DNA of 64,000 bases from a virus (lineage: Duplodnaviria > Caudoviricetes), in the IMG/VR virus record IMGVR_UViG_3300043694_000018, positions 1-64,000 of that record; one strand, 5' to 3'. Positions 3,896 through 64,000 of the stretch are shown in pieces. The stretch's first letter is position 1. Each line of letters begins with the position of its first letter. The notes beneath the pieces are model-generated. The model was not told where the DNA came from. It was given only the letters and a program-made list of their open reading frames with translations, and did not search any database. Made by a program: the position numbers and the translations under genes.

Positions 3896-4196
3896 ACCCA
3901 TCTACCGCCTCAGCCTCTACGAGGCCTGCGTCTACACCAACCTCGACCCCTACCTGCTCGGCATCCTCCTCGATGATTTCGGCCTCCCGCGTCACCACAT
4001 CCCCACCGACCAACTCGACGGCATCCTCCGCTTCCTCAACGCCAATATCCTCGGCGATCCCGTCATTTTCCGCCTCTGGGCCGAGTCCGGCTTCACCGCC
4101 TACAACCCCGCCGACCGCGCCGGTCGACCCGCCCATGGCGCTCACACGCTTGACAGTACCCCGCCCGCTGTGGCTCAAATCCGCTCCGATAGCTGA
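3855..4196 (+). CDS. Hypothetical protein
   Basis: 3' part of ORF 3735-4196 has normal protein composition; start uncertain. Confidence 0.45.
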   Translation: MNARNCESSSTETEPIYRLSLYEACVYTNLDPYLLGILLDDFGLPRHHIPTDQLDGILRFLNANILGDPVIFRLWAESGFTAYNPADRAGRPAHGAHTLDSTPPAVAQIRSDS

Positions 4197-4362
4197 GCGC
4201 GGCCCTTCAGGGCCTGAGATCGGATCGCTCAGCCACTCTCGCGGGGAGGCTCCGATGTGAATTTCAGACATTCCATTTTGCGGAGCCATGCCTTACGACC
4301 TGTCCTCTTTTCAGGGCATCAGGATACACAGGAGGTCCAACAGTCCCGCGAGACCAACAGCG

Positions 4363-4887
4363 ATGTTCGCTTGGCACGTCGCCATCACAAAACCTTTCTC
4401 CGAACTGATTGCTGAACGGCACCTCGAACAGCAAGACTTCCAGCCGTTCAATCCCAAGTGCCTCATCATGCGCATCGTCCGAAACCGGCGCATCTTCACC
4501 GAGAAACCCTACATCCCCGGATACATCTTCATCCGATTCGATGTCGACACCGACAACTGGCAGCGCGTCAACAACACCAAAGGCGTGCAGCAGTTGATCT
4601 ACTCGTCCCCCGAACGCCCCGCTTGGATTCGCGACGAGGTCATGCAAGTCCTCATCGACCGTTGCTCAGGCGGTCAGTACGTCGCCCCAGAGCACATCGA
4701 TCAGGCCATCTCCAAGCTCATCCCCATCGGCGCGCTCGTCCGCGTGGTCGACGGTCCCTTCGAGGGCATGCGCGCGCCCGTCCACTGGTCACACCACCAG
4801 CGCGTCTCCGTCCTCTTGTCCTTCCTCGGCGTCCCCCGCAAAATCGATCTCCCCGCCCGATCCGTCGAGGTCGTCGGTCGGGCCTAA
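4363..4887 (+). CDS. NusG/RfaH-family transcription elongation/antitermination factor (NGN + KOW)
   Basis: W.V..TKP..E..AERHL, KPYIPGYIFIRFD, V..TKGV..LI (NGN); G..VRVVDGPFEG..A.V and RVSVLLSFLG (KOW). Start may be 4288. Confidence 0.9.
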   Translation: MFAWHVAITKPFSELIAERHLEQQDFQPFNPKCLIMRIVRNRRIFTEKPYIPGYIFIRFDVDTDNWQRVNNTKGVQQLIYSSPERPAWIRDEVMQVLIDRCSGGQYVAPEHIDQAISKLIPIGALVRVVDGPFEGMRAPVHWSHHQRVSVLLSFLGVPRKIDLPARSVEVVGRA

Positions 4888-51642: not shown

Positions 51643-52010
51643 TGCGGCAAGTTCGATTCGGTGTAGCCGAAGCGCTCCATCAGTGCGTGACGACAGTTCT
51701 CGATCTGCACGAGGAACAGGCGCTCCCAGAAGAAGTCGGAGCGGACCATCCGGTCGAGCAGCTTCTCGTTGTGCCGGTGCTGCGCCTCCTCCCACATCAT
51801 GGCGTAAGCGCGCGCTTCGATCATGGTCTCGCGGTCGTACAGCGTCTCCGGCAGCTTGATGCCGCGCTCGCGCAAGGCCTTGATGGCGCTCCCGGCCGCT
51901 GCGATCACTTGCTGCTCGTTGAGCACCGGCCCGCTCATCGGCGTCAGGCTCTGCGTCGCGACGAACTCCAGCATGTCCTTCGGCGGCTTCGGCAGATCGT
52001 TCGTGCTCAT
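51639..52010 (-). CDS. Hypothetical protein
   Basis: GGAGG RBS. Confidence 0.6.
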   Translation of the reverse strand: MSTNDLPKPPKDMLEFVATQSLTPMSGPVLNEQQVIAAAGSAIKALRERGIKLPETLYDRETMIEARAYAMMWEEAQHRHNEKLLDRMVRSDFFWERLFLVQIENCRHALMERFGYTESNLPQ

Positions 52011-52330
52011 AGGCCCTCCATGAACTCGGCGTCGCCTGTCACGATGATGACAGTGCCGACGAGGTAGTCGCCGATCTCGGACGGCTGGCGGTCGAGCGCG
52101 CGCGCCCACAGCAACGTGGCCTGCGCGTTGAAGGGCAACTTCTTGTTCTTCCCATCCTCGTCGCAGAAGGCGACGCACTGCTGGCCCTCGTAGACGTAGA
52201 AGCTCGGCACCGCCTCGACGTAGCCGCCGTTCAGCGCGGGCTTGATCAGTTCGAGAATGTTCTGCGGGTCGGTGGTGTCGATGCGCGAGATCGGTCGATC
52301 CGGGCGCACGATGTGAAGCGATCCGTTCAT
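52007..52330 (-). CDS. DUF3846-like protein
   Basis: GGYVEAV, FCDEDGK.K.LP.N..AT, DYLVG.V....G. Confidence 0.75.
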   Translation of the reverse strand: MNGSLHIVRPDRPISRIDTTDPQNILELIKPALNGGYVEAVPSFYVYEGQQCVAFCDEDGKNKKLPFNAQATLLWARALDRQPSEIGDYLVGTVIIVTGDAEFMEGL

Positions 52331-52662
52331 GACGACAGCCTCCTCATGTGCAAGAGCGCGATGCAGAGCATGATCGGCAGAACCGGCACGCCGTCGATCA
52401 GCGTCGCGCGGTCGAAGTCGAGCGCACCGTCGAGCAGGCTGCGCATGCCGCTTTCGTCGTGGGCGAGATCGTCGGCACTGATGTCACGTTCCTTCTGCAT
52501 GCGCTCGAAGATCAGGCGCAGCGCACCCAGCGCAGCATTGACGCGGGCCTCGGTCATCACCTCCTCGGGCTCCACGTCGTAGCTCTCGCGCAGCAGGGCG
52601 CGCGCCTTCTCTACCCACTCGGGCGTGATGTACTGGACGATCTCGCGCGGGATGCCCTTCAT
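52327..52662 (-). CDS. Hypothetical protein
   Basis: ATGA overlaps. Confidence 0.6.
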   Translation of the reverse strand: MKGIPREIVQYITPEWVEKARALLRESYDVEPEEVMTEARVNAALGALRLIFERMQKERDISADDLAHDESGMRSLLDGALDFDRATLIDGVPVLPIMLCIALLHMRRLSS

Positions 52663-52913
52663 TCGGCCTTCTCGATGTGCTGCTTGGCGGCTTCGAGCGC
52701 ACTGTCGATCTGCGCCTCCAGATCGGGCACGGTGATCTTGAGCGCCTCCCGCCTGATCTTCTGGAGCGTCACGACCAGCAGGACGTTGGCCTCCTCCAGC
52801 GCGTTCTTCTGTTTGACCAGCTTGGTGATCTGGCCGTGCAGCGCGCCCAGCCGGTCGTTGATCGCGCTGCTCAGGTCATCGACGCGCTTCATCAGTTCTT
52901 CGGTCGTCGGCAT
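52659..52913 (-). CDS. Coiled-coil protein
   Basis: GGAGGAG RBS; heptad pattern. Confidence 0.6.
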   Translation of the reverse strand: MPTTEELMKRVDDLSSAINDRLGALHGQITKLVKQKNALEEANVLLVVTLQKIRREALKITVPDLEAQIDSALEAAKQHIEKAE

Positions 52914-52915
52914 GC

Positions 52916-53218
52916 TCACTCCTCCACGGGCTGGGGCTTTTTGGCGAGGCGGTTGACGGCTTCGGTCAACAGGGCCGCACGCTGGATAATGTACTGGTCG
53001 CGGCATGCCTCCTCCTCGTTCTCGCTGCGCGCCTTGGTCAGGCAGTCATCGTAGGTCTTGCGCGCCGCCTTGACGCGGTTGTCCCAATCGTCGGCGCGCA
53101 GCACGCAGGTCGACAGGCCGATCAGGATCACCGCGCCGAGCACGGTGAAGAAGGCGTCGCGCAGCCGTCGAAAGGCGCAGAACGCCGATACGACCAGCAG
53201 GATGACGACGAAGATCAT
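52916..53218 (-). CDS. Membrane-anchored protein
   Basis: Two N-terminal hydrophobic stretches. Confidence 0.55.
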   Translation of the reverse strand: MIFVVILLVVSAFCAFRRLRDAFFTVLGAVILIGLSTCVLRADDWDNRVKAARKTYDDCLTKARSENEEEACRDQYIIQRAALLTEAVNRLAKKPQPVEE

Positions 53219-53574
53219 CGCAGCGCACTCCGGCGGCCAAGCTGCTTGCCGATCAGTTCGGCCCCGACCTCGTCGCGGGCGTCGCTCTGCTTGACCCACG
53301 TGATTACGCCCGTGGCGGTCACGCCAGTCTCGCCGATCAGCACGCCGACCAGATCGCGGTCGCGCACGAGTTCGGGCATCTCCTCCTCCAACTTCTTGAG
53401 CCGGGCCTCGATGGGTCCCTCGTACTCGAAGACGCCTGCCTCGTTCATGCCGGTGTCGCGCACCGGCATCTTGACGCCGATCAGGTGAATCCGCTGGTAG
53501 CTATCGCCCATCACGAACGACACGCGCCGGGTCTTCCAATTGCTCACGCCGCGCGGGCGACCCCGTGGCATCAC
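53215..53574 (-). CDS. Hypothetical protein
   Basis: GGGGAGGG RBS. Confidence 0.55.
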   Translation of the reverse strand: MMPRGRPRGVSNWKTRRVSFVMGDSYQRIHLIGVKMPVRDTGMNEAGVFEYEGPIEARLKKLEEEMPELVRDRDLVGVLIGETGVTATGVITWVKQSDARDEVGAELIGKQLGRRSALR

Positions 53575-53867
53575 GCCCTCCCCCGGATCGCTTCGCGCTC
53601 GCCGATCTGGCGGTCGATCTCCGTGGCGATGGCGATCAGATCGCGCTCGATCTTGTTGAGGGCTTCGCGGCGCGCGATATGCTCATGGTAGGCAAGCGAC
53701 GCCGCGTCACCCTTGGGGCTGGTGGCGATGGTCTGGTAGTCGCGGCCGTGGACCGTGAGGGCGCTCATCGCAGCTTGCGCGGCCTGTATGGCGTGGATGG
53801 CGTCGAGGTATTCCTGCTTCAGGACCTCGGCGTTCGTGCCGTTGATGTTGATCTGAGGAAACTGCAT
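53571..53867 (-). CDS. Conserved small phage protein
   Basis: ACACAGGAG leader; P.IN.NGT..E.L...Y..A...HGRDYQ motif. Confidence 0.7.
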   Translation of the reverse strand: MQFPQININGTNAEVLKQEYLDAIHAIQAAQAAMSALTVHGRDYQTIATSPKGDAASLAYHEHIARREALNKIERDLIAIATEIDRQIGEREAIRGRA

Positions 53868-53889
53868 TGTCATTCTCCTGTGTTTCGAT

Positions 53890-53905
53890 GCCCTCAATTT
53901 AGGGC
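53890..53905. promoter_or_regulatory. Palindromic site GCCCT-CAATTT-AGGGC
   Basis: Intergenic, upstream of early gene. Confidence 0.8.
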
Positions 53906-53933
53906 GTGACCGGGAGAACTACAAGCCCTCTCG

Positions 53934-54137
53934 TCACTGGCCGCACTGGTCGGGGAACGGTTCCTGCCCCTTGTGGATGCGGGCGTCGTTCGTCGTCTTC
54001 AGGTTGGCCCGGCAGGTCTCGACGGCCTTGCTCCGGGCGATGCCGTCGCCGATCAGGTAGCCGGTCAGCAGCACGGCACAGCCGCTCGTGCTCAGCGCAA
54101 CGCCCGCCAGTACGCACGCCATGGCAAGACGCTTCAC
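53934..54137 (-). CDS. Small lipoprotein
   Basis: GTG start, ALSTSG|C lipobox-like. Confidence 0.55.
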   Translation of the reverse strand: MKRLAMACVLAGVALSTSGCAVLLTGYLIGDGIARSKAVETCRANLKTTNDARIHKGQEPFPDQCGQ

Positions 54138-54373
54138 GATGTCACCTTGGCCAGCGTGGCGTAGCAGTTCATGCCCGCCGTGGTGCGGACCTCCGTGCCA
54201 TTGGCCAGCGTGAACGAGAACGCGCCGCTGTTCACGGCGAGGTCGTAGGCGTCCTTCCACGTCTGCGCGCCGGGATAGGTCTGGCACGTGACATTCCATG
54301 GGCCGCGCGGCGTGGCGGCGGCGACACTGGTGGCCGCGCAAACCAGCGCGGCGATGGCAAAAACTCGAATCAC
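54134..54373 (-). CDS. Small secreted protein
   Basis: AGGAAGG RBS, signal peptide. Confidence 0.6.
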   Translation of the reverse strand: MIRVFAIAALVCAATSVAAATPRGPWNVTCQTYPGAQTWKDAYDLAVNSGAFSFTLANGTEVRTTAGMNCYATLAKVTS

Positions 54374-54399
54374 TCAACACCTTCCTTTCGACGCCCTAA

Positions 54400-54430
54400 G
54401 CCCGCGTCAGCTTTTCAGGGCTGAGCGGGC
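54400..54430 (-). ncRNA. Bulged leader hairpin, copy A
   Basis: GCCCGC-UCAGC-[CCUGAAAA]-GCUGA-C-GCGGGC. Confidence 0.55.
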
Positions 54431-54508
54431 CGGGTTCCTGTGGTAGATCGGGGTGGTTGCCGGGCGGCCAACACAGGACACAAACCGCCCGGCGTCCCCC
54501 ACGCGAGA

Positions 54509-54532
54509 GGGAGCGGCTTCCCATCCGCTCCC
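54509..54532. terminator. GC-rich hairpin after DUF932 gene (possible terminator, no U-tract)
   Basis: GGGAGCGG-cttcccat-CCGCTCCC. Confidence 0.35.
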
Positions 54533-54546
54533 TCCCTCCCAAGTTC

Positions 54547-55665
54547 TTAGGCAGCGACGGGCACCGCCTCGACATCGATCACCGGCTGGGCAGCGGCGCG
54601 GCGGCGGCGGCGCACCGGGGCCGCGTCGGCCTCCAGTACCTGCTTCCACTCGGCCTGCGGCAGTTCCAGCAACTGGCCGCCCAGCTTCTCGAAGTCGACG
54701 GCGCGGTCGTAGTCGGTGGCGTCGTGGGCCTGCGCGGTGACGGCGTTCAGCACGCCCCACTTGCTCAAGTCGCCGCCCTCGATCAGCGACCGCAGGATGC
54801 CGCCGGTCTCGGTCTCGTTGGCACCGATCTTCTGGGCCAGCACCTCGACCGCAGCCGCCGGGTTGCCGACGATCTTGGCCTCGGTCATGCCCTGCATCTT
54901 GGCGACGACCTTGCCGAACTCGATCTCGCCGACCGCGTTCCGCACCATGTCGCGGACCTTGAGCAGGATCGCCCGGTCGTCCGCCTTCTTCGTGTCGTCG
55001 GCCCACAGGGCCTCGTTGTCTTCGATCTTGCGACCGACGTGACGAGCGCTGAAGCGCTGGTCCGGCAGGATCATGCCGTTGAGGCAGCGCAGGCGGTACA
55101 CCATCGGCGTCACCGACACCGCGCCGAAGCCGATCTCGGAGTTCGAGATCACGACACCGGCCTGCACCACGTCGCCGACCTTGACCTCGCCCTGTACACG
55201 CGGGCTCACCGCCTGAATGTACATGCGCCGCTCAGTCACTTCGCAGGAGACGATCTGGACTTGCGGGATGTCGAGCAGCACCGGCAGCGCGACCTCGGCG
55301 ATTTCCTCGTTCTCGATGCGCTGATACTGGTTCGACAGGAAGGCGCGGACGTTGTCCTTCAGGACGCGGACCATGCGCTTCTCGGGGTTCGCGTGGAACC
55401 ACGTGTTGACGTTCTGGGCCAGAAGCTCCGGCTGGTCGGCGAGCATGCGGTCGTAGTATTTGACCGGGATGCCGAGGCGGTTGGCGATCTGGTTGTGAGC
55501 AGTCGGCCGGATGGCGAGCGGCTGCTGGCTGGGGATGACGAGCGACGTGCCCGTCTCGCTGGGCCTCATCTCGACCGACGCGGTGTCGGCGATGAAGTCC
55601 TTCTTCTGGGTCTTCAGGCCCTCGATACGCTGGGCCAACTCGGAAAGCGACAAACCTTTAAGCAT
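54547..55665 (-). CDS. DUF932-like protein
   Basis: ACACAGGA leader; RAFLS..Y.RI.N, G..ISNSE.G.G.V.V......RL.CLNGM. Confidence 0.75.
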   Translation of the reverse strand: MLKGLSLSELAQRIEGLKTQKKDFIADTASVEMRPSETGTSLVIPSQQPLAIRPTAHNQIANRLGIPVKYYDRMLADQPELLAQNVNTWFHANPEKRMVRVLKDNVRAFLSNQYQRIENEEIAEVALPVLLDIPQVQIVSCEVTERRMYIQAVSPRVQGEVKVGDVVQAGVVISNSEIGFGAVSVTPMVYRLRCLNGMILPDQRFSARHVGRKIEDNEALWADDTKKADDRAILLKVRDMVRNAVGEIEFGKVVAKMQGMTEAKIVGNPAAAVEVLAQKIGANETETGGILRSLIEGGDLSKWGVLNAVTAQAHDATDYDRAVDFEKLGGQLLELPQAEWKQVLEADAAPVRRRRRAAAQPVIDVEAVPVAA

Positions 55666-55723
55666 TGAAGTGGTAGTTCCTGTGTTTGCTCCGGCTGCCG
55701 GGATGGTCCCGCCGGGCACCACA

Positions 55724-55752
55724 GAGATAGGCTCACTGAAAAAGTTTTGCAA
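55724..55752 (-). promoter_or_regulatory. Sigma70-like early promoter TTGCAA-N17-TATCTC
   Basis: One of three near-identical promoter boxes. Confidence 0.6.
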
Positions 55753-55761
55753 GCCCCTGAT

Positions 55762-55804
55762 GCCCTTTTTTGAGGGCCTATGGATTGTGCCCTATTTTGC
55801 GGGC
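55762..55804. promoter_or_regulatory. Tandem palindromic sites (GCCCT-TTTTTG-AGGGC and variant GCCCT-ATTTTG-CGGGC)
   Basis: Just upstream of the -35 of the DUF932 promoter. Confidence 0.8.
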
Positions 55805-56001
55805 ATGACCACATCCAGCTTGCGGGGTGCCCGCTGGGTGGCGTGGTAGGTGCAGAAGTGGCCGATCCGGGCCGGGCGCTTGCACTGGTAGGCTGGCTTG
55901 GCCGTGGTCGGCGGCAGCACAGCGGCGAGGCAGCGCGCCGGGTCGACCGGCGGCTGGTCCTCCCTCGGCGAGTACAGGCAGCGCAGCGGCAGGGTGCTCA
56001 T
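55792..56001 (-). CDS. Small Cys/His protein
   Basis: C...C...C.R.....FC..H. Confidence 0.55.
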   Translation of the reverse strand: MSTLPLRCLYSPREDQPPVDPARCLAAVLPPTTAKPAYQCKRPARIGHFCTYHATQRAPRKLDVVMPAK

Positions 56002-56189
56002 GCCGGGGCCTTCTCCTCGGGCGCGTGGCTGCGCAGCGGGAAATCGCGGGTGGTGTGGCACTTCCACGTGCTGTTCGGCTTGTGCGGGTCCGTCACCCAC
56101 TTGTAGCTGTACTCGGTCACGCCGGTCTTGATCAGCGTGATCTGCGCGCCGCACTTGGCACAGGTCGCGGTCTTCGTCATCGGCATCAC
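55998..56189 (-). CDS. Small Zn-ribbon protein
   Basis: CAKCG ... C ... H.P. Confidence 0.6.
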   Translation of the reverse strand: MMPMTKTATCAKCGAQITLIKTGVTEYSYKWVTDPHKPNSTWKCHTTRDFPLRSHAPEEKAPA

Positions 56190-56392
56190 GGGAACTTCTC
56201 TTTCAGGTCGTCCAGCACCGACAGGCTCACCTCGGCGAGCCCGCCCAGAACTCCGTGCATGGCGTTCGCCAAGTCGCGGGCCTCACCCGGCTTCAGCGGC
56301 TTGTCGTCGCTGTTGTAGAGCCGGGTCATGACGCGGCGCAGCTTGGCGACCTCCATGCCGTCGATCACGAAGTCCTTGTCCTCGTCGCTCAT
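56186..56392 (-). CDS. Hypothetical protein
   Basis: ATGA overlaps. Confidence 0.6.
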   Translation of the reverse strand: MSDEDKDFVIDGMEVAKLRRVMTRLYNSDDKPLKPGEARDLANAMHGVLGGLAEVSLSVLDDLKEKFP

Positions 56393-56808
56393 GCCAGCAC
56401 CGCGCCCTGTTCGAGGTCGTAGTTCTCCAGCAACCGCCGGGCGGCGTCGATCTGGTCGGGCCGCATCTCCTCGGCAGCGCGCCGGTCGTTGGCGACCCAG
56501 CGCACGAAGCCCAGCACGTGCCCGGCAAGATCGGGCGACTGGACGCGCCAGTGCTTGAGGTCGTAGCGGCCCACGTACTCCAGCCCATCGGCGAACACGA
56601 CCTTGAAGTCGTGCTTGTCGTACCCGCCGCCGGTCGGCGCGGTGCGGCTGTTCGTGCGCAGCGTGTTGTTGGCGTCAGTCCAGCCCCGGCAGACCTGCAC
56701 GATGCCGCACTCGCTGGCGAGGCCTTCGACGCGCGTGATCTCGATGCGCACCGGGCGGATAAGCTCGCGGTACACCTTGCCGTCCACGCCCTGATAGGTC
56801 GCGCTCAT
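56389..56808 (-). CDS. Hypothetical protein
   Basis: AAGGGGG RBS; GGYDK.DF.V.F.DG..Y.GR.DL motif. Confidence 0.65.
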   Translation of the reverse strand: MSATYQGVDGKVYRELIRPVRIEITRVEGLASECGIVQVCRGWTDANNTLRTNSRTAPTGGGYDKHDFKVVFADGLEYVGRYDLKHWRVQSPDLAGHVLGFVRWVANDRRAAEEMRPDQIDAARRLLENYDLEQGAVLA

Positions 56809-56984
56809 GCGGCCCCCTTGGCGAAGCGGTACTCGCGCTCGGCCCACTGGTCGAGCTTGCTGAGCTTGTCCTTGTACTCGGACTCGCTCAGCTTGCCCGC
56901 CATGTACTGGGCGTCGATGGCGTCAGTGGTGCGCTCGACGGCGCGCTCGATCTGGTCCTCGGTCATGATGGTGTTCGTTCTCAT
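56805..56984 (-). CDS. Small helical protein (59 aa, not in ORF track)
   Basis: Hand translation: MRTNTIMTEDQIERAVERTTDAIDAQYMAGKLSESEYKDKLSKLDQWAEREYRFAKGAA. Confidence 0.65.
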   Translation of the reverse strand: MRTNTIMTEDQIERAVERTTDAIDAQYMAGKLSESEYKDKLSKLDQWAEREYRFAKGAA

Positions 56985-57000
56985 GCCCTCAATTTAGGGC
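56985..57000. promoter_or_regulatory. Palindromic site GCCCT-CAATTT-AGGGC
   Basis: Abuts ATG 56984. Confidence 0.8.
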
Positions 57001-57236
57001 GCGTCGTCGTTGCTTTCAATGGGGAAGACGCGCTGGCCCGGACGATATTCGCGCACGTCGAGGATCGGGTCGTGGTCGTACAGGCGCAGCGACAGGCGCG
57101 ACAGCCAGAGCAGCACCCAGTACAGGCCGTCGACCACGATCTGGCTGAGGCTGAAGACCAGCACCATCAGCAGGAACAGCGGCACGATGAGCGCCAGTAT
57201 CAGGGCGAACGACGCCGCAGCGCGCAGGGCGTTCAT
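56994..57236 (-). CDS. Membrane protein
   Basis: Long hydrophobic segment. Confidence 0.55.
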   Translation of the reverse strand: MNALRAAASFALILALIVPLFLLMVLVFSLSQIVVDGLYWVLLWLSRLSLRLYDHDPILDVREYRPGQRVFPIESNDDAP

Positions 57237-57562
57237 TCGGCCGCCACCTTGGCCGCCAGCGGCACCGGCACCGGGTCAGGCTCGATCACCGGCAGCGGCG
57301 CGACCGTGACGACCGGCTTGGCCGCGCGCTTCTGCGGCTTCACCGTGTAGTTCTGCAACAGGCGCTTGACGGTATCCACCACCATCATCTCGACCAGAAA
57401 CAGCACCTCCTGTCGTGGCAGGTTGGCGTCGGCGACGACGACCCGGACGTGCTGGACGTGCGGGTCGGCGCTGACGACCGGGGCGGACCAGATGACTGGC
57501 CCGCCGGGCGGGACCACTGAGCCGTTGCAGCAGTTGATCTCGATCTCGCAGACGTACTTCAT
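57233..57562 (-). CDS. Hypothetical protein
   Basis: GGAGG RBS. Confidence 0.55.
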   Translation of the reverse strand: MKYVCEIEINCCNGSVVPPGGPVIWSAPVVSADPHVQHVRVVVADANLPRQEVLFLVEMMVVDTVKRLLQNYTVKPQKRAAKPVVTVAPLPVIEPDPVPVPLAAKVAAE

Positions 57563-57843
57563 GCGTTGTTGCTTGAGCCTCCACCGTTTGAACGCTTGCG
57601 CGCGAGCACCCTGCTCCGCGCCCGGACGCAGGGCGCGCACATGCAGGAGTCGAGCGTCTTGTAGAAGATCGAGGCTGCATGCCACGCCGGGCACTCCTCG
57701 CGCAGGGCGATGGCGGCGATCTGGCCCACGTCATCCGGGCGCTTGACCCGGATGGAGGCTCGCACGATGCCTTCCCACTGCTGGATTGTGAACCTATGGC
57801 GTCCCACTACACTCTCCCCATGTCCCCTTTGTAGGGCATGCAA
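57559..57843 (-). CDS. Hypothetical Cys-containing protein
   Basis: ATGA overlap; start uncertain. Confidence 0.4.
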   Translation of the reverse strand: MHALQRGHGESVVGRHRFTIQQWEGIVRASIRVKRPDDVGQIAAIALREECPAWHAASIFYKTLDSCMCAPCVRARSRVLARKRSNGGGSSNNA

Positions 57844-57924
57844 TCTGCGATTGACAAGGATGGAATTGTCCGACTGCGGCGCTCAGGTATTACCCCCAAA
57901 GCGCTCTTGCCTAACCTTTCGGGA

Positions 57925-58110
57925 TCATGACGACAGCGCGCTCCCCTCGCGGACGTTGCCCTCGATCAGGACCTCGGTGGTGTTCTTCATCACCAGCGCA
58001 GTGCCGTGCAGGTCGATCTTGCTGCCCGGCAACCAGACGACCAGTTGATGGTCGTCCAGCGCCGGGTCGAGCTTCATCAGTTCGTCGCGCACTTGCTTGA
58101 CGGTCGCCAT
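57925..58110 (-). CDS. Hypothetical protein
   Basis: GGGGAGG RBS. Confidence 0.65.
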   Translation of the reverse strand: MATVKQVRDELMKLDPALDDHQLVVWLPGSKIDLHGTALVMKNTTEVLIEGNVREGSALSS

Positions 58111-58111
58111 C

Positions 58112-58762
58112 TCACACCTCCCCCGGATCGGCGTTGATCGCCGCGTCGCGCAGTTCCTCCAGCGCGGCCTCGTAGTCCGACTCGGCCTGTTCCTTGGCGT
58201 CGGCCTGTTCGGTCAGGTACTGCTCCCACGCGGTGGTCGCCCAGTCCTGAACGGCGTCGAGGTAGTCCTCGACCGTCGCGAGGTCGAGCCGTTCGGGCTC
58301 CGGCATCGAGTAGTTGTCGAGGAAGTCCTCGAAGCTCTGCTCCTCCGGCTCCTCCAGTTCGGGCTGGTCGAGGCCTTCGATCTCGTCGGCCCACGTCTCG
58401 CAGTTCTGGATGCGCTCCTGAAGCATCTCGCCGGTCGCGCCCTGTTGCAGGCCCTCCGGCATGTTGTCGAGGCTGCCTTGGCACTCCTCACCCAGCGACC
58501 TGATCTCGCCCGCGATCTCCACGAGCGCGTCATACAGGCCGTCATCGAGGCTGAGGTCGCCCATCTGTTCGCTGAAGCTACGCCACTGGCTCTTGAAGCT
58601 CGACCGCGTCAACTGGCTGGGACGCGGGTACGCCTTGCTGACGACCTTGGTCCCCGGCCCGCGCTGGTTCTTGAACGTCCACCAGTAGTACGTGTCACCC
58701 ACCGCGATCCCGGCATGCGGGATCGCCTTGCGGGCGCGCTCGACCTTATTGACGCGCGGCAT
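58112..58762 (-). CDS. Acidic hypothetical protein
   Basis: GGAGG RBS; GD.YYWW N-terminus, acidic helical C-terminus. Confidence 0.7.
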   Translation of the reverse strand: MPRVNKVERARKAIPHAGIAVGDTYYWWTFKNQRGPGTKVVSKAYPRPSQLTRSSFKSQWRSFSEQMGDLSLDDGLYDALVEIAGEIRSLGEECQGSLDNMPEGLQQGATGEMLQERIQNCETWADEIEGLDQPELEEPEEQSFEDFLDNYSMPEPERLDLATVEDYLDAVQDWATTAWEQYLTEQADAKEQAESDYEAALEELRDAAINADPGEV

Positions 58763-59072
58763 CGGAAGCCTCCTTGGCCTTGCGCGCGGCTTCGTCGCGG
58801 TCCCGCTCGCGCAGCATGTGATGCTGCACCAGCGTCGCGATCCGCTCCTCGTCGGCGAACAGGTCCTTCAGCGCGCCGTAGGCACCGCTCAGGTTCGCCA
58901 CCTTGCAGGCGGCATACAGCAGGTCGTTCGCGGCGTCCTTGTCACCGGCCGCGAAGCTCATGTCGATGAACACCGTGTTCGGCTTGTCCTCGGCGGTGTT
59001 CGCCCCAACCCGCAGGTTGGTGATGCTGCCGACAATCGTGCTGACGGTCGGCGGGTCCTTCCTTCTTGCCAT
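58746..59072 (-). CDS. Hypothetical protein
   Basis: ACACAGGAG leader. Confidence 0.65.
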   Translation of the reverse strand: MARRKDPPTVSTIVGSITNLRVGANTAEDKPNTVFIDMSFAAGDKDAANDLLYAACKVANLSGAYGALKDLFADEERIATLVQHHMLRERDRDEAARKAKEASDAARQ

Positions 59073-59094
59073 GTCACTCTCCTGTGTTGTTGTG

Positions 59095-59114
59095 ACGCCC
59101 TAAATTTAGGGCGT
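59095..59114. promoter_or_regulatory. Perfect 20-bp palindrome ACGCCCTAAATTTAGGGCGT
   Basis: Upstream of the ACACAGGAG leader of gene 58746-59072. Confidence 0.8.
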
Positions 59115-59366
59115 GGCCTTCCCGTTTTCAAGGGCCGCCGCACGCTCGGCCTTGCTCGGATAGATCACGCGCTGGCGGCGGAACACGCGCTTCTGCGGCT
59201 CCGGCTCAGGCGTGCTCGGCCCATAGGGCGCGACGCCCGGCGGCAGGTTGTGGTTGATGATGGCGAGGTTGGCCGCCTCGACGGCGGCCTCGGCGAGCTT
59301 CAGCGCATCGTGCGCCCGGCGCAGGCAGGCGTAGGCCTTCACCAGCAGGTCGTGCCGTTCACTCAC
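59106..59366 (-). CDS. Hypothetical protein
   Basis: GTG overlap. Confidence 0.55.
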   Translation of the reverse strand: MSERHDLLVKAYACLRRAHDALKLAEAAVEAANLAIINHNLPPGVAPYGPSTPEPEPQKRVFRRQRVIYPSKAERAAALENGKATP

Positions 59367-59556
59367 GCGGCACCTTGCTTTCGAGCACGATGACGCGCTT
59401 GATCCGGTCGTGCCAGATGCGGAACGACTCGGTCGGCCGGTTCGGCACTTCGAGCACGATCTCGCAGTCGCTGTGGCGATAGGGCTCGGCCAGCCGGGCG
59501 GTGGTGTCGCCGCCGTTGGTCGTGAGCACGCGCACGAGGATGCCCTTGGGGATCAT
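59359..59556 (-). CDS. Hypothetical SH3-like small protein
   Basis: G..VRV.T.NGG beta-rich pattern. Confidence 0.55.
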   Translation of the reverse strand: MIPKGILVRVLTTNGGDTTARLAEPYRHSDCEIVLEVPNRPTESFRIWHDRIKRVIVLESKVPRE

Positions 59557-59559
59557 GGT

Positions 59560-59844
59560 TCAGGCCTCCAGCGTCCGGGTGAGGTTCAGCCGCGCCGCCA
59601 TCGGCACCCGGTCGAGGGTGTCGTTGGCGTTGACGATCATCGCCATGCTGTACGAGCCGTAGGGCTTGAACTGCTCGACGCCGTTGTAGACCGAGAGGCG
59701 GCGCACGACGCGCTTGCCGTGGACCTCGGTGGTGATGGTCTTCGCGGTGCGCGCCTCGATGCGGAAGAAGCTCCACAACTGGCTATCGCCCGTGAAGTTG
59801 TCGGCGTAGGTGGTGCCGACCTGAAAGCGCTTGATGTCGTTCAC
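59560..59844 (-). CDS. Hypothetical protein
   Basis: ACACAGGAG leader before GTG; F.VG.TY......D.......RTAKTI motif. Confidence 0.7.
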   Translation of the reverse strand: MNDIKRFQVGTTYADNFTGDSQLWSFFRIEARTAKTITTEVHGKRVVRRLSVYNGVEQFKPYGSYSMAMIVNANDTLDRVPMAARLNLTRTLEA

Positions 59845-59857
59845 GATGATCTCCTGT

Positions 59858-59883
59858 GTCACGCCCTAAATAGAGGGCGTGAC
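59858..59883. promoter_or_regulatory. Extended palindrome GTCACGCCCT-AAATAG-AGGGCGTGAC
   Basis: Intergenic. Confidence 0.8.
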
Positions 59884-59900
59884 GTTCGGGGTTCAAGGGT

Positions 59901-60086
59901 TCAGCGGCGGGTCTTCGCGGCCTTCTTGGCGGCGGCCAGAAAGTCGTCGCCGACCTTCAGGACGCTCACCCGGTGAAGCCGCGCGATCATGCGTAGCCGC
60001 ACAGACGAGGTTTCGATGACGCCCTTGGGCGAGGTGCGCTTGGCTTCCTCGACCAGCCGGGCAATCGCCTCTCGGTACTTGCTCAT
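59901..60086 (-). CDS. Hypothetical protein
   Basis: GGAGG RBS. Confidence 0.6.
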   Translation of the reverse strand: MSKYREAIARLVEEAKRTSPKGVIETSSVRLRMIARLHRVSVLKVGDDFLAAAKKAAKTRR

Positions 60087-60490
60087 CGCACCACCTCCAC
60101 CACTTCTCGCTCGGCGAGGTAGCGGTACTTGCCGTCAGCAAACTCGACGCGGGCGCGCATGTAGCGCGTGCCGCCAACGCTAGTCCGGCGCGTCCACTCG
60201 ATGGCCGCGACCTCGCGGGCACCGTCGCCGCCGATCACCAGCCAGTCGCCGACCTTCACGGCCTCGGCCTCGATGTTCTCGAAGCGGCCGAGGTCGCCCT
60301 CGGCCATCTGCGGCACCGCGCGGGCCTTGGCCAGTTCGGCGCGGAGGTCCCACGCTCGGTCGAGCAGCTTGCGGCTGACGCTCGCGGCGTCGTAGGCATC
60401 CGACTCCAAGCCGTACTGGCTGAGGAGCTTGGCGGCCTCCTTGCACCGCGCGGAGGCGGTGAACAGAATCTCTACTTGTGTGTCAGTCAT
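60083..60490 (-). CDS. Hypothetical protein
   Basis: ACACAGGAC leader. Confidence 0.65.
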   Translation of the reverse strand: MTDTQVEILFTASARCKEAAKLLSQYGLESDAYDAASVSRKLLDRAWDLRAELAKARAVPQMAEGDLGRFENIEAEAVKVGDWLVIGGDGAREVAAIEWTRRTSVGGTRYMRARVEFADGKYRYLAEREVVEVVR

Positions 60491-60522
60491 GATGGTCCTG
60501 TGTTGGTTCTCTCGACTCCCCG

Positions 60523-60554
60523 ACCCCGCTCACGGGTCCTAACCGTGGCGGGGT
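60523..60554 (-). ncRNA. Bulged leader hairpin, copy B
   Basis: ACCCCGC-CACGG-[UUAGGAC]-CCGUG-A-GCGGGGU. Confidence 0.55.
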
Positions 60555-60637
60555 TCTGGGGTGATGCCGGGGCTCGACCCGGCGGCTGCATTTCCTAGGC
60601 CGTCCCCGACACTCCGGGGTGCTTCGCCCTCCCCACC

Positions 60638-60682
60638 AAGATGGGGATGCTGAAAGATTTTTGCAAGCCCTAAAAAGAGGAC
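60638..60682 (-). promoter_or_regulatory. Sigma70-like early promoter TTGCAA-N17-CATCTT abutting variant palindrome GCCCT-AAAAAG-AGGAC
   Basis: Sequence match to the other two copies. Confidence 0.6.
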
Positions 60683-61149
60683 ATCAAAACCTCGTACTTT
60701 TCGCTCAGCCCGCGCACGAGATCGGCAGCCTCAGAGAAGGTATCGGCCGGGACGCGCAGGGTCTCGACCGGGTGCTGCCCGGCATCTGGGCCGCTCATCA
60801 GCGTCGCGTTGCCGTTGACGTATTGCACCGTCCAGAGCGTCTGGACCTTGGCCTTTGGGTTGGCCACGACCACGTCGAGCGGCTTGCGGTTGAAGCTATC
60901 GTCCAACAGCGTCGCCCGCTCGTACTCGTAGACCTTCGAGCCGGGGAACGTGTCGAACACGATGCGCCCGGTGGTCCGGCCCTCGGCGACCAGCCTGCGG
61001 CTGGCGTGGCAGCCAGTCTTGAACTCCATGCGGGAGTTGTGCTTGCGCTCGCCCCAGCTTGGCTTGTAGGCGTACTTCGCCACGTTGGCCTCGCGGCCGT
61101 CCGTGAGCTTCACGCGCTCGGCCGTCACTCGATAGACATACGCACCCAT
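60670..61149 (-). CDS. Hypothetical protein
   Basis: ACACAGGAG leader. Confidence 0.65.
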   Translation of the reverse strand: MGAYVYRVTAERVKLTDGREANVAKYAYKPSWGERKHNSRMEFKTGCHASRRLVAEGRTTGRIVFDTFPGSKVYEYERATLLDDSFNRKPLDVVVANPKAKVQTLWTVQYVNGNATLMSGPDAGQHPVETLRVPADTFSEAADLVRGLSEKYEVLMSSF

Positions 61150-61183
61150 TGAACTCTCCTGTGTTGGTTCTCTCGACTCCCTG

Positions 61184-61216
61184 ACCCCGCGTCAGGTTCT
61201 CAGGCCTGAGCGGGGT
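61184..61216 (-). ncRNA. Bulged leader hairpin, copy C
   Basis: ACCCCGC-UCAGG-[CCUGAGAA]-CCUGA-C-GCGGGGU. Confidence 0.55.
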
Positions 61217-61224
61217 TGCGGGGG

Positions 61225-62187
61225 TTACATCTGATGATTGTCGCCGCTGAAGTCGTTGTAGTCCGGCTCCGGCTCGGCCGACCCGGTCGAGTAGTCGGTG
61301 CGGGCACCGTCGCCGTCTTCGCTGCGCTGGTCGTCGGCAGGCCCGATCTTGCGGGCCTGCGTCGGGCGACTGAAGAAGCCGAACTTCGGGTCATCCCGGC
61401 TCGGCTGGACCTTGGCGCTGAACTCGACGGTGTCGCCGCGCTCGACGCTCAGACCGGCGGGGACCGTGCCCCACACCTTCCAGCCGTCCTGATGGCGGAC
61501 CAGCATCTTGAGCACCGAGCCCCGGAAGCCATCGACCAGCTTGGTGCTGACGACCTCGCCCCGGATGGTGATGCGCTGGTCGCTGACCGGGAGCGGCGCG
61601 GCGGCGGCCTTCTCGGCCTCGCGCTGGGCGGTGCGCTGGGCGCGGTTGCTGATGTCGCTCAGCAGCTTGCCCACGAAGTTCGCCTGCTTGTCCGAGATCG
61701 AGCCGTAGCGCACGACCTTCGAGACGATGTCAGTGATGATCGACTCCTCGCGGGGAAGCGGCGCGTCGTAGGTCGCGGTGTAGATCGTCCACGCGGTGTT
61801 CAACTGGCGGTCGGCCAGAAGCTCCTGCGCGCGGGCCTTGCCCTTGAAGGTCTTGCGGCCAGCCGCGATCCGCTTCTTGAACGAGCGGAAGGCAGTGGCG
61901 TCGCCCATGTCCATCTTCTCGGCGCAGTCCATGCCGGTCTGGATGTAGGCGTTGCTCGGGCGATGATGGAAGCGCGCCACGTACATGGCGTGCGCGCCGC
62001 ACACGTGGCACGTGCCACCGTGCTCGTGATGAGACCACGTGCCACCCGTGCGCTTCTGATGCTCGCGGAAGAACATGCGGTCGCTGAGGAACGCCATGGA
62101 GTCCACGCCGCCGCCCAGATAGTCACAACTGACGTAGTCGTACTCCTGCGGCTGGATGGTGCTCGGGCGATGAAGGTCGGTTCTCAT
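61225..62187 (-). CDS. Protein with CxxC region and C-terminal OB-fold-like domain
   Basis: ACACAGGAC leader; CHVCG...CAEK; ITIRGEV....KVWGT...GDTVEF.A.V....DD..FGFFSRP. Confidence 0.7.
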   Translation of the reverse strand: MRTDLHRPSTIQPQEYDYVSCDYLGGGVDSMAFLSDRMFFREHQKRTGGTWSHHEHGGTCHVCGAHAMYVARFHHRPSNAYIQTGMDCAEKMDMGDATAFRSFKKRIAAGRKTFKGKARAQELLADRQLNTAWTIYTATYDAPLPREESIITDIVSKVVRYGSISDKQANFVGKLLSDISNRAQRTAQREAEKAAAAPLPVSDQRITIRGEVVSTKLVDGFRGSVLKMLVRHQDGWKVWGTVPAGLSVERGDTVEFSAKVQPSRDDPKFGFFSRPTQARKIGPADDQRSEDGDGARTDYSTGSAEPEPDYNDFSGDNHQM

Positions 62188-62224
62188 ATGGTCCTGTGTT
62201 TCCGGGCCACGGCGGCCCACCACA

Positions 62225-62252
62225 GAGATGGGGATTTGCAAAAAATTTGCAA
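62225..62252 (-). promoter_or_regulatory. Sigma70-like early promoter TTGCAA-N16-CATCTC
   Basis: Sequence match to the other two copies. Confidence 0.55.
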
Positions 62253-62274
62253 GCCCCCGATCTCGATTTCATAT

Positions 62275-62324
62275 GCCCTGCAATTAGGGCATGGTGGTTA
62301 TTGCACAGGCCCTGAAATTAGGGC
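62275..62324. promoter_or_regulatory. Two palindromic sites (62275-62290, 62309-62324)
   Basis: Upstream of the promoter at 62225-62252. Confidence 0.8.
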
Positions 62325-62855
62325 ACGCTCCAGCCCGGCCTTGGACCGGCGCAGCTTGCGCAGGGCGTTCTCGGCCCGGCGGGCCTTGGCCTCCCATCGC
62401 TCGATCCGGGCGGTGACGCTCAGCAGCTTGAGCGCGCGGACCTCGGCCTTGTCGGGCTTCGGCTTCGGCTCAGGCTTGGCCTTCGGCAGATGCCAGCCCT
62501 TCCTGACCACGTAGTCGACCATCGCCTTCTCCAGCGCCGCGTGGACGTGGGAGTGCGTCAGCTTGCCGGGGTGCATGACCTCGAACAGGTAGTGGCTGCA
62601 ATCGTGAACCATGCGGCCGAGACCGTTGTGCCCGCCGTTGGCGTAGCGCTTCGTGTCCTGCGGCTTGGTGTTCGCCCAGCACCGCCGACCCCGGCGGAAC
62701 CATGACGGCATCCGCAGGTAGATCGGGTCAATGTCCGGGTGCTTGGCGAACTTCGCGAACAGCTTGGCTGCCAGCGGCACGACCTCGGCCTTGGTGATCG
62801 GGGGGAGGATCGCTCCTCCCCACGCCGCGCCCACGTCGTCGTAGCTCACGGTCAT
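62298..62855 (-). CDS. Hypothetical protein
   Basis: GGAGG RBS; HD.SH...H..H pattern, possibly metal-binding. Confidence 0.6.
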   Translation of the reverse strand: MTVSYDDVGAAWGGAILPPITKAEVVPLAAKLFAKFAKHPDIDPIYLRMPSWFRRGRRCWANTKPQDTKRYANGGHNGLGRMVHDCSHYLFEVMHPGKLTHSHVHAALEKAMVDYVVRKGWHLPKAKPEPKPKPDKAEVRALKLLSVTARIERWEAKARRAENALRKLRRSKAGLERALISGPVQ

Positions 62856-63181
62856 GCGAGCCTCCGACCCTTGGCGCTGATGCGCGCCCAGTCCGACATC
62901 GAGACGCTTTGCTCGGCCCCGCCGTCGTGCAGCCAGATCAGCCGGGAGCCGGTCTCATCCTCGGCGACCCAGACGCGGCGGATGCCGCTGCCCAGTCGAC
63001 GGAGGTAGTGGTCGGTGTTCGCGATGAAGACCTCCCAACGCTCGGCGTCTTCGTAGCGCTCGCCCTCGGGCCTGCGCGCCTTGAAGCGCTTGCGCCGGGG
63101 CTTCACCTCCACCGGCTTCTGATCTCTCGACCGCCGCAGGAACGCGGGGATCGCGAGATCGTCATCACTCATCAACAACAT
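62852..63181 (-). CDS. Hypothetical protein with DDLAIPAFLRR motif
   Basis: ACACAGGAG leader. Confidence 0.65.
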   Translation of the reverse strand: MLLMSDDDLAIPAFLRRSRDQKPVEVKPRRKRFKARRPEGERYEDAERWEVFIANTDHYLRRLGSGIRRVWVAEDETGSRLIWLHDGGAEQSVSMSDWARISAKGRRLA

Positions 63182-63244
63182 TCGACTTCTCCTGTGTTCA
63201 ATCGAATGAAAGATTTTAGCACAGGAGGAAGCAAAAGTCGAGAC

Positions 63245-63260
63245 GCCCTATTTTGAGGGC
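63245..63260. promoter_or_regulatory. Palindromic site GCCCT-ATTTTG-AGGGC
   Basis: Overlaps stop of 63248 gene, upstream of next gene. Confidence 0.75.
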
Positions 63261-63520
63261 GCGTCGTCTTCGGGGCTACTAGACTTAGCGAAGCTGAGCG
63301 TGATCGTCTCGACTTCGCGCGCCGGTCTGTACTCGACCAAGTCGGCGAACTCCTCGTACTTCGACTCGTCAGCACCACCCTGCACGGCGACGGCGAACAC
63401 GTAGGCCGTGACCGGCGTGCCCTTCTCGCTCACGCCGCGCCAGATGCGCACCGGCATGTTCGGCTTCACACCGACGAGCGTCGCCCAGTCGTCGGTCAGT
63501 TCGATGGTCATCTTCACCAT
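63248..63520 (-). CDS. Hypothetical protein
   Basis: AGGAGA RBS; P.RIW.G.S..G.PV..YV. Confidence 0.65.
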   Translation of the reverse strand: MVKMTIELTDDWATLVGVKPNMPVRIWRGVSEKGTPVTAYVFAVAVQGGADESKYEEFADLVEYRPAREVETITLSFAKSSSPEDDAPSK

Positions 63521-63678
63521 CACCGTTCTCCTATTGCTAAGTCGCGGCACACGGCTTCGCCGTGGTGCCAGTAGCACTCGATCTTGGCGACGGCTCGCCA
63601 CAGCGGCGTGTCATCGATGCTCGACCAGTCGATAGAGAGCACGACCCATGCGATTAGCAGGATGGCCACGGAACGCAT
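63520..63678 (-). CDS. Small exported protein (52 aa)
   Basis: Hand translation: MRSVAILLIAWVVLSIDW...ECYWHHGEAVCRD; TGATG coupling. Confidence 0.5.
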   Translation of the reverse strand: MRSVAILLIAWVVLSIDWSSIDDTPLWRAVAKIECYWHHGEAVCRDLAIGER

Positions 63679-63830
63679 CACCATGGCTCGTGATCTTCAT
63701 CATCGTATTGCATGAAATCGATCAGCCGCTGCGGCAGGTCGAACCAGACCACGTACTGGATGCCCAGCAGCATGGCGGCGAGGGTCGCGCCGACGCACAG
63801 CAGAACGATGACCTCGCCGAGGCTGATCAC
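63678..63830 (-). CDS. Small membrane protein
   Basis: GTG overlap; hydrophobic. Confidence 0.5.
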   Translation of the reverse strand: MISLGEVIVLLCVGATLAAMLLGIQYVVWFDLPQRLIDFMQYDDEDHEPW

Positions 63831-64000
63831 TGGATGACGCGCGTCGCCAGCGCTGCGCGCTCGACCTCGGTGAGTTCCCAGTGCGCCACGACCAGCCACA
63901 GGTCCGCCTTGCCGATGCGGCGCAGCAGGTACGGATCACGCGGCGGGATCGGCTCCCATTCGGCTTCCCAGAGCACGTGATAGTTCGCGAGCCCACGCTT
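63827..64000 (-). CDS. 3' end of a conserved phage protein (cut by window edge)
   Basis: Hand translation: KRGLANYHVLWEAEWEPIPPRDPYLLRRIGKADLWLVVAHWELTEVERAAL. Confidence 0.65.
   Translation of the reverse strand, partial: KRGLANYHVLWEAEWEPIPPRDPYLLRRIGKADLWLVVAHWELTEVERAALATRVIQ

Follow-up and report, generated by a model that had tools for sequence, protein, structure and literature searches.

The window analysed here, which comprises the first 64 kb of the 79,317-bp IMG/VR phage record IMGVR_UViG_3300043694_000018 (Caudoviricetes; its genome is denoted G000), carries on its minus strand three similar GC-rich RNA hairpins, elements A, B and C, each followed by the ribosome-binding site (RBS) of a gene. 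What is a hairpin that recurs in this way between the genes of a phage, and what could it do there? The original prediction, made from the letters of the window, was of an undescribed cis-regulatory RNA in early-gene leaders that could serve as a protein-binding site, a put-like antiterminator or an RNase III/E processing site. This interpretation was supported in part: the element is undescribed, structured and cis-acting, but the three mechanisms are unequally compatible with the data and 'early-gene leaders' is too narrow a description. The family to which the hairpins belong is almost certainly a conserved, strand-specific RNA structure that is under selection and new to Rfam, and its confirmed copies represent a previously uncatalogued structured cis-acting RNA that is found between the small accessory genes of many phages, with the marking of transcript boundaries as its most likely role.

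A family of bulged hairpins with covarying stems

Sequence reading and minimum free energy folding confirmed the three hairpins on the minus strand at the positions predicted for them (54400-54430, 60523-60554 and 61184-61216), and RNAfold returned the expected architecture of a lower stem of 6-7 bp, a single bulged base on the 3' side, an upper stem of 5 bp and a loop of 7-8 nt. Read on this strand, hairpin A is GCCCGC-UCAGC-CCUGAAAA-GCUGA-C-GCGGGC, hairpin B is CCCCGC-CACGG-UUAGGAC-CCGUG-A-GCGGGG and hairpin C is CCCCGC-UCAGG-CCUGAGAA-CCUGA-C-GCGGGG, with the covariation claimed for both the upper stem (UCAGC/GCUGA, CACGG/CCGUG and UCAGG/CCUGA, respectively) and the lower stem (GCCCGC/GCGGGC in A; CCCCGC/GCGGGG in B and C). 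The corresponding fold energies are -26.1, -30.6 and -28.2 kcal/mol (RNAfold), with z-scores of -3.2, -4.0 and -3.8 relative to dinucleotide shuffles, and the window contains two occurrences of the hairpin pattern, for which 100 shuffles give an expectation of 0.00. B and C are 82% identical over ~66 nt, including the 25-nt common stretch GGGAGUCGAGAGAACCAACACAGGA that had already been noticed. The loop of B (UUAGGAC) is not a variant of that of A and C but belongs to a second class that recurs in other phages. The distance of ~25 nt from hairpin to RBS was roughly right, the start codons that follow A, B and C lying 21-34 nt past the stem.

With a covariance model built from relatives, the three elements score 67.2 (A), 42.5 (B) and 71.4 bits (C) on the minus strand and at most 13 bits on the plus strand, and no other position of the 79-kb genome scores above 12 bits. 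The full model match of element C extends over 61162..61230, after the stop of a 321-aa gene and before the ATG at 61149; in its hairpin (61184-61216), 61210-61216 pairs with 61184-61190 in the lower stem and 61205-61209 with 61192-61196 in the upper stem, enclosing the loop CCUGAGAA (61197-61204), with the bulged C at 61191 and the tail at 61169-61183. Element B (60501..60568, minus strand; hairpin 60523-60554) combines the class II loop UUAGGAC with a bulged A, lies ~110 nt downstream of a predicted sigma-70-like promoter and is followed by its tail, an RBS and the ATG at 60490. Element A (54377..54445, minus strand; hairpin 54399-54431, with its core at 54400-54430) has the loop CCUGAAAA, a bulged C and a tail, CUUAGGGCGUCGAAAGG, that runs into the RBS, and is the last in a series of three hairpins that follow the DUF932 gene.

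Through the DUF932 gene upstream of A, relatives at 61-63% protein identity were found that carry a GC-rich hairpin and a similar tail at the same place, together with further copies of the same architecture. The pattern CCCGC-N4-5-CCTGARAA-N5-6-GCGGG retrieved 31 IMG/VR stretches, and a stricter form retrieved 27 metagenome stretches and only three stretches in 185,579 species genomes. The pattern matches split cleanly into 33 with a fully paired upper stem, about ten in which all but one position pairs, and a remainder with 0-3 paired upper-stem positions and no flanks, which we take to be chance matches in about the expected number. The covariance model (R1), a search that had been proposed together with the original prediction, added between 1 and 5 copies for every one of ten more phage records and recognized 54 distinct sequences among the loci collected. 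A scan with a 17-mer of the tail alone gave one new member (L279, with the loop GUGAA) and otherwise mostly chance matches in high-GC coding DNA, all 80 matches to the exact tail 14-mer in IMG/VR were due to chance, and searches for related loci with the 159-aa protein encoded between C and B found none, while those with the 321-aa protein gave 40 loci that are too distant, the hairpins downstream being non-homologous. The family consists of about 50 distinct copies on about 30 viral or metagenomic contigs, and its carriers, many of them uncultivated soil and freshwater phages, form a loose high-GC group. The claim that it is undescribed was borne out: scanning of 52000-64000 on both strands with the covariance models of Rfam 15 gave no match at E <= 1, megablast and blastn searches of 50,697 cultured-phage records with the region and with element A revealed no cultured relative (the portal protein shares no more than 48% identity with any such record), and a literature search for the loop strings returned unrelated uses only.

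The structure was assessed in an alignment of 38 distinct copies (A2), which had been filtered on upper-stem pairing and collected with a pattern that fixed five of the lower-stem pairs; within it, 95.5% of the cells of the 12-pair structure are paired, a proportion that falls to 78% on shuffling and to 32-45% when the register is slid. Covariation in homologues, on which the original prediction was made to depend, is strong, with compensatory changes on both sides in nine of the 12 pairs and a score of 0.454 (versus 0.131) that was reached by none of 500 shuffles. It extends to pairs that the pattern left unconstrained, namely 15-47 (AU in 14, GU in 11 and GC in eight copies) and 16-46 (CG in 26 and GC in ten). 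RNAalifold gives the same helix, and G-U pairs are confined to the sense strand. A structured RNA acting in cis on one strand is further supported by the difference in score between the strands (71 versus at most 13 bits) and by the orientation of the neighbouring genes, which lie on the strand of the element in 45 of 46 cases.

The consensus begins with a C-rich 5' flank ending in CA, followed by a lower stem of 7 bp (RCCCCGC/GCGGGGY), a bulge of one base on the 3' side (A in 19, C in 18, U in eight and G in six copies) and an upper stem of 4-5 bp of almost any sequence, which covaries freely. The main loop, CCUGARAA, is found in ~80% of the copies (CCUGAGAA in 25 and CCUGAAAA in 16) and recurs on no fewer than 15 different upper stems; the second class, YUAGGAC, present in B and in G005, G006 and L237, occurs over four different upper stems. 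Minor loops are AUUGAGCC (three copies) and, in single copies, loops with GAAA, GCAA or GUGAA. One way of drawing the main loop, which is a reading rather than a result, is as a GARA tetraloop of the GNRA type that is closed by U-A and accompanied by two unpaired C residues. The hairpin is followed by a tail, Y-U-N-R-G-G-N-G-U-Y, in which 94% of copies retain the second-last G and 83% retain the U, and then by a purine run that in several copies is the Shine-Dalgarno sequence itself. In L170, a relative that is syntenic with this phage at 75-85% nucleotide identity, the orthologue of C displays a double compensatory change, from UCAGG/CCUGA to UCCGG/CCGGA, and the counterpart of B carries the other loop class. 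Conservation of the apical loop above stems that covary keeps plausible the specific protein-binding site put forward by the original prediction.

Several minor features of the hairpins and their surroundings may also be recorded. A loose fourth hairpin, CCCGCCCCGC...GCGGGGCGGG, lies beyond the window at genome positions 66116-66159 on the minus strand (L128:2116-2159), after a stop codon and ahead of the RBS AACACAGGAC; its score of 10.5 bits is compatible with a degenerate relative as well as with an unrelated GC hairpin. Two more strong hairpins are located between the DUF932 stop and element A (54436-54540, minus strand), the second of which has a loop, GUCCUGUGUUGG, that is complementary to the common RBS motif CCAACACAGGAC. 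The tails of B and C, AGUCGAGAGAACC (60501-60522 and 61162-61183, minus strand), look like the sarcin-ricin loop of 23S rRNA, the sequence of which we take to be AGUACGAGAGGACC; few family members share this likeness, which is probably a coincidence. Three other ways of reading the element were considered and rejected: an H-type pseudoknot between loop CCU and tail AGG, for which a linker of 1-2 nt is unable to span the 12-bp helix; a tail that forms one half-site of the GCCCT-N6-AGGGC palindrome of this genome, which fits A only, the tails of G001 differing from the palindrome of that genome (CACCCT...AGGGTG); and a hammerhead-like core (CUGA...GAAA...GUC), the positions of which do not fit and for which there is no Rfam match.

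Position between genes and a possible role in the transcript

All copies are intergenic and the RBS of the next gene is always 3' of the element; the stem typically begins 17-25 nt after the upstream stop, and 21-63 nt separate it from the next start. Most copies are intercistronic, ~20 nt after the previous stop, and the elements are not confined to the early-gene leaders of the original prediction. They are also clustered, with four copies in 1.3 kb of G001, four consecutive spacers occupied in L177, three copies in 1 kb of G005 and three in 0.9 kb of G006, such that each of these four has three to four successive spacers occupied, and they often lie in the consecutive spacers of runs of genes without a family match; the order in G001 is promoter, element, gene, element, promoter, gene, element, gene, element, gene. 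The flanked proteins are mutually unrelated and match no family, and those encoded downstream do not form a family of their own. Comparison with related loci revealed that similarity begins or ends at the element: B with its RBS and the first codons forms a 75-nt island of 84% identity to L170, between a leader and genes that are unrelated (the 159-aa gene is similar to L170 at its 5' end only), and in L178 the similarity spans the DUF932 gene and hairpin A and ends 11 nt past the stem.

In this respect the element recalls the promoter-early stem-loop (PeSL) cassettes of T4-type phages, which combine a terminator stem-loop with an early promoter (Arbiol et al. 2010, PMC2839356; Comeau et al. 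2014, PMC4122927). Both are short conserved intergenic stem-loop units, repeated between small variable genes in hyperplastic regions, and both coincide with points at which related phages have swapped genes. They differ in that a conserved tail and an RBS follow the present hairpin, whereas a promoter does so no more than once or twice (the second element of G001 is the only one with a promoter-like site after it), in that the hairpin is bulged, with 12 bp and a conserved 8-nt loop, and in that the carriers are unrelated high-GC phages of 55-80 kb.

The occurrence in spacer after spacer, the constant spacing from the preceding stop codon, the similarity junctions and the existence of terminator-like relatives (described below) lead us to favour, with a probability of about 0.4, a role as factor-recognized punctuation of the transcript, in which a leaky stop or pause, processing and 3'-end protection would be coupled to the next translation start. 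The element would be transcribed within an early or accessory operon and fold into the 12-bp bulged hairpin, with its conserved apex, just behind the ribosome finishing the upstream gene. There, it would constitute a leaky and probably factor-modulated stop, pause or processing point and would also protect the 3' end of the upstream message, while the tail and Shine-Dalgarno region would start the next gene. Because the same unit of ~45-70 nt flanks many unrelated small genes, it may further provide a patch of similarity at which phages exchange gene cassettes, a by-product of the kind proposed for PeSL. Control of transcript ends or read-through, if true, would explain how cassettes are expressed one by one, and an exchange patch would explain part of the mosaicism of these genomes. 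The family itself, with about 50 copies, heavy covariation and no Rfam entry, is an addition to the structured RNAs of phage biology and is located where phages keep their fastest-changing genes of unknown function.

Several points weigh against this reading. The number of U residues in the 9 nt after the stem has a median of 2-3 and reaches four or more in only nine of 51 copies; most copies thus have fewer than an ordinary intrinsic terminator requires. Element B of G000 and the first element of G001 each separate a promoter from its first gene, which a strong stop at this place would silence. Moreover, a plain terminator or stabilizer needs neither a conserved 8-nt loop nor an RGGNGUY tail, and no protein common to all carriers, be it a binding protein or a nuclease, was found in a BLAST-level comparison. 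The analysis establishes the structure of the elements, their conservation, strand, position and copy pattern and the mosaic junctions; every functional step of the proposed mechanism, including an effect on transcription or RNA ends and a factor that binds the loop, is one that we infer.

The relation of the element to terminators was examined further. The GC-rich hairpin shortly after a stop codon that typifies an intrinsic terminator is present, whereas the U-tract (at least 4-5 U in ~8 nt) is lacking from typical members and carried by a few (L145, L146 and L167), and a scan of 46-64 kb found canonical terminators to be no more frequent than in shuffled sequence. The intrinsic terminators that flank the 'moron' genes of temperate phages are similar in being GC-rich hairpins located ~20 nt after a stop and next to small accessory genes, and rare members and bacterial relatives of the present family have true U-tracts; they differ from its typical members, in which 2-3 U in 9 nt are accompanied by a conserved loop and a purine-rich tail. 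The strict pattern occurs twice in Methylobacterium sp. P31 (L166:4022-4049 and L167:4344-4371), in both cases ~30 nt downstream of tRNA-Met(CAU) genes, which from their sequence we read as initiator tRNA genes. Both of these class I copies keep a GCGU-type tail, one being followed by CUUUUGUG; their 5' flanks are identical and their 3' flanks differ. Such copies might terminate the tRNA transcript or mark one end of an element that has integrated at the tRNA. Model matches were obtained in four of 121 genomes of the bacterial family to which Methylobacterium belongs. Two of the four (~30 bits) consist of a promoter, a bulged CCCCGC/GCGGGG hairpin, UUUUU-GCGUUGG and an RBS, and stand ahead of a small gene, a 197-aa gene and a gene with a helix-turn-helix motif. 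Judged from their sequences, the last two may encode a head-tail protein and a small terminase subunit, respectively, and if so this pair would represent the leader terminator of a prophage late operon. The UUUUU-tailed bacterial relatives suggest that the scaffold grades into true terminators and that typical phage copies have lost the U-tract.

The fixed position upstream of the RBS, with several tails running into the Shine-Dalgarno sequence, could also indicate a translational operator, at which a protein bound to the hairpin would repress or activate initiation, and a bulged hairpin with a conserved loop resembles what we take to be the coat-protein operators of RNA phages. This role is highly unlikely, given that anything between 21 and 63 nt separates the hairpin from the start codon, that the hairpin never covers the RBS and that the downstream genes are mutually unrelated. 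The mosaic junctions and the cassette-like layout of the small flanked genes might, in turn, be attributed to a DNA-level element, such as a single-stranded DNA hairpin or recombination site that mobilizes cassettes; alternatively, the RNA could be a decoy of the CRISPR type I-E repeat stem, which we take to be CCCCGC/GCGGGG and thus identical to the lower stem. Both are most improbable: the elements are strictly co-oriented with transcription, an RBS always follows them and no dedicated recombinase was seen beside the clusters, while the apparent resemblance to the I-E repeat is confined to a GC stem of 6 bp. An attC-like integron site was likewise rejected, with no integron integrase noticed, the RBS always following and the flanking AAC/GTT inconsistent. 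At least one of the features examined speaks against each of the classical RNase III, plain terminator, translational operator and DNA-level models.

Conserved loops and possible antitermination or processing

The conserved loops and tail point to a specific factor that reads the element, which makes recruitment of the lambda nut or LoaP type the main rival of transcript punctuation. A phage or host protein would bind the GNRA-like apex, possibly with the tail as a boxA analogue, ride on RNA polymerase and suppress termination along the minus-strand operon. Conservation of the apical loop over covarying stems is as expected, as is the location of some copies just downstream of promoters; the loop contains UGAAAA or UGAGAA, close to what we take to be the lambda boxB loops, and variants have GAAA, GCAA or GUGAA. 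Both lambda nut and the present element are RNA hairpins of early transcripts that are capped by a GNRA-like purine loop and located in the leader or behind the first gene. Yet a boxA-like sequence (YGCUCUUWA-like) was found within 60 nt in only three of 47 copies, with one mismatch each and at no fixed position, and the stem of 7 + 5 bp with a bulge, capped by a loop of 8 nt (CCUGARAA) or 7 nt (YUAGGAC), differs from the boxB pentaloop on 5 bp. Up to five copies stand in adjacent spacers, every 300-600 nt, which is needless for a processive modification, several loop classes occur within one phage, and no canonical terminators to be overridden were found downstream. With boxA-like sequences this rare, copies a few hundred nt apart and an 8-nt loop on a 12-bp stem, the put-like or lambda nut-like antiterminator of the original prediction fits poorly, and we regard such recruitment as unlikely.

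The search for a protein partner bears on the same model. The ten assembled carrier genomes have very few proteins in common, the widest family being a tail-fibre-like protein present in eight of them, and no Arg-rich N-like protein is shared among the carriers at the BLAST level. A NusG-family protein is encoded at 4288-4887 on the plus strand of the window (PF02357, E = 8e-15; phrog_6386, 'transcription antiterminator'), and such a paralogue is present in six carriers (G000, G002, G005, G006, G007 and contig L143), which favours antitermination, since the NusG paralogue LoaP needs a leader RNA hairpin, in that case a single-copy one with a UNCG loop, upstream of a NusA-dependent terminator (PMC12691694). 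In both systems a small leader RNA hairpin is found in a genome that also encodes a specialized NusG paralogue. Here, however, the paralogue is absent from the complete carrier genomes G001, G008 and G010, so that co-occurrence of the LoaP kind does not hold and the paralogue is ruled out as an obligatory partner, and in this phage it sits in the oppositely oriented late block. The protein at 4288-4887 has an NGN domain and, in our reading of the alignment, a KOW-like C-terminal part; it heads the 48-kb plus-strand late block, with a TTGACA-type promoter-like site near 4150, and is probably an antiterminator of the late operon.

Processing of a polycistronic early RNA into stable monocistronic messages, by RNase III as in T7 or by a Cas6-like hairpin-specific endonuclease, is also conceivable and appears quite unlikely. 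The early RNase III sites of T7 are intercistronic or in the leader, just before the RBS in the early operon, an arrangement repeated by the present elements; in both cases the copies resemble each other, and the conserved tail could hold the cut. The T7 sites are irregular duplexes of ~20 bp with an internal loop and no conserved apical loop, whereas 12 bp form the secure helix here, and conservation of the loop would be left unexplained by an enzyme that does not read loops. Complementarity between the 5' flank and the tail is slightly better when each flank is combined with its own tail than in mismatched pairs (-8.2 versus -7.4 kcal/mol, p ~0.015); an outer helix is absent from the consensus fold, and the idea that it might complete a 20-bp RNase III substrate was set aside given so marginal a difference. 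No nuclease gene is common to the carriers. The RNase III site of the original prediction thus fits the position of the element, and of the duplex of ~20 bp that the classical enzyme needs, 12 bp are secure here and an outer helix is weakly supported.

Punctuation could also be more elaborate. In such a 'punctuation code', which is rather doubtful, one scaffold would carry swappable loops (CCUGARAA, YUAGGAC, AUUGAGCC and GNRA), each read by a different putative phage or host factor that decides co-transcriptionally on the next cassette. If so, the swapping of loops at orthologous positions, as in B and its L170 counterpart, would rewire control, and the 5-nt complementarity of CCUGA and UUAGG might allow loop-loop contacts. 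In the window this complementarity, which includes one G-U pair, is found between the loops of A and C (54411-54418 and 61197-61204) and that of B (60535-60541); a contact between them may be conceivable, and the match may equally be due to chance. The conserved loop could serve as bait for a new RNA-binding regulator, and the element is a candidate part for the tuning of operons in high-GC bacteria.

Genomic setting

The genes of the plus strand (44 to ~48 kb) are structural, lysis and late genes, and the minus strand carries a long block that runs from ~76.3 kb down to 48 kb. A, B and C lie in the distal part of this block, amid small genes without a Pfam or PHROG family. One of these, the 159-aa gene between C and B (60670..61149, minus strand), forms a cassette-like unit. 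Three near-identical sigma-70-like promoters (TTGCAA, 17 nt and a -10 element in CCCATCT) are predicted on the minus strand at ~62.25, 60.67 and 55.75 kb. The first (TTGCAA-17 nt-ATCTCT, 62224..62252), a match to the consensus only, heads the 321-aa gene that ends at C and has GGGCTTGCAAA...CCCATCT in common with the other two, which are located upstream of element B (TTGCAA-17 nt-CATCTT, 60638..60666) and at the start of the DUF932 gene, itself followed by element A (TTGCAA-17 nt-TATCTC, 55724..55752). One hairpin element is found downstream of each of these three promoters. A further copy of the TTGCAA promoter-like stretch is present at 76625-76645, and the promoter family GGGCTTGCAAA...CCCATCTCTGTGGTG recurs at ~76640, 76340 and 71640 of the genome, often overlapped by GCCC-N8-GGGC palindromes, which are numerous in the region of the elements. 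Finally, an extended translation-initiation motif, AACACAGGAG/C, occurs at many minus-strand starts (61157, 60495, 59079, 59851, 63189 and 55678), and its ACAnGGA core resembles what we take to be the binding consensus of CsrA/RsmA.

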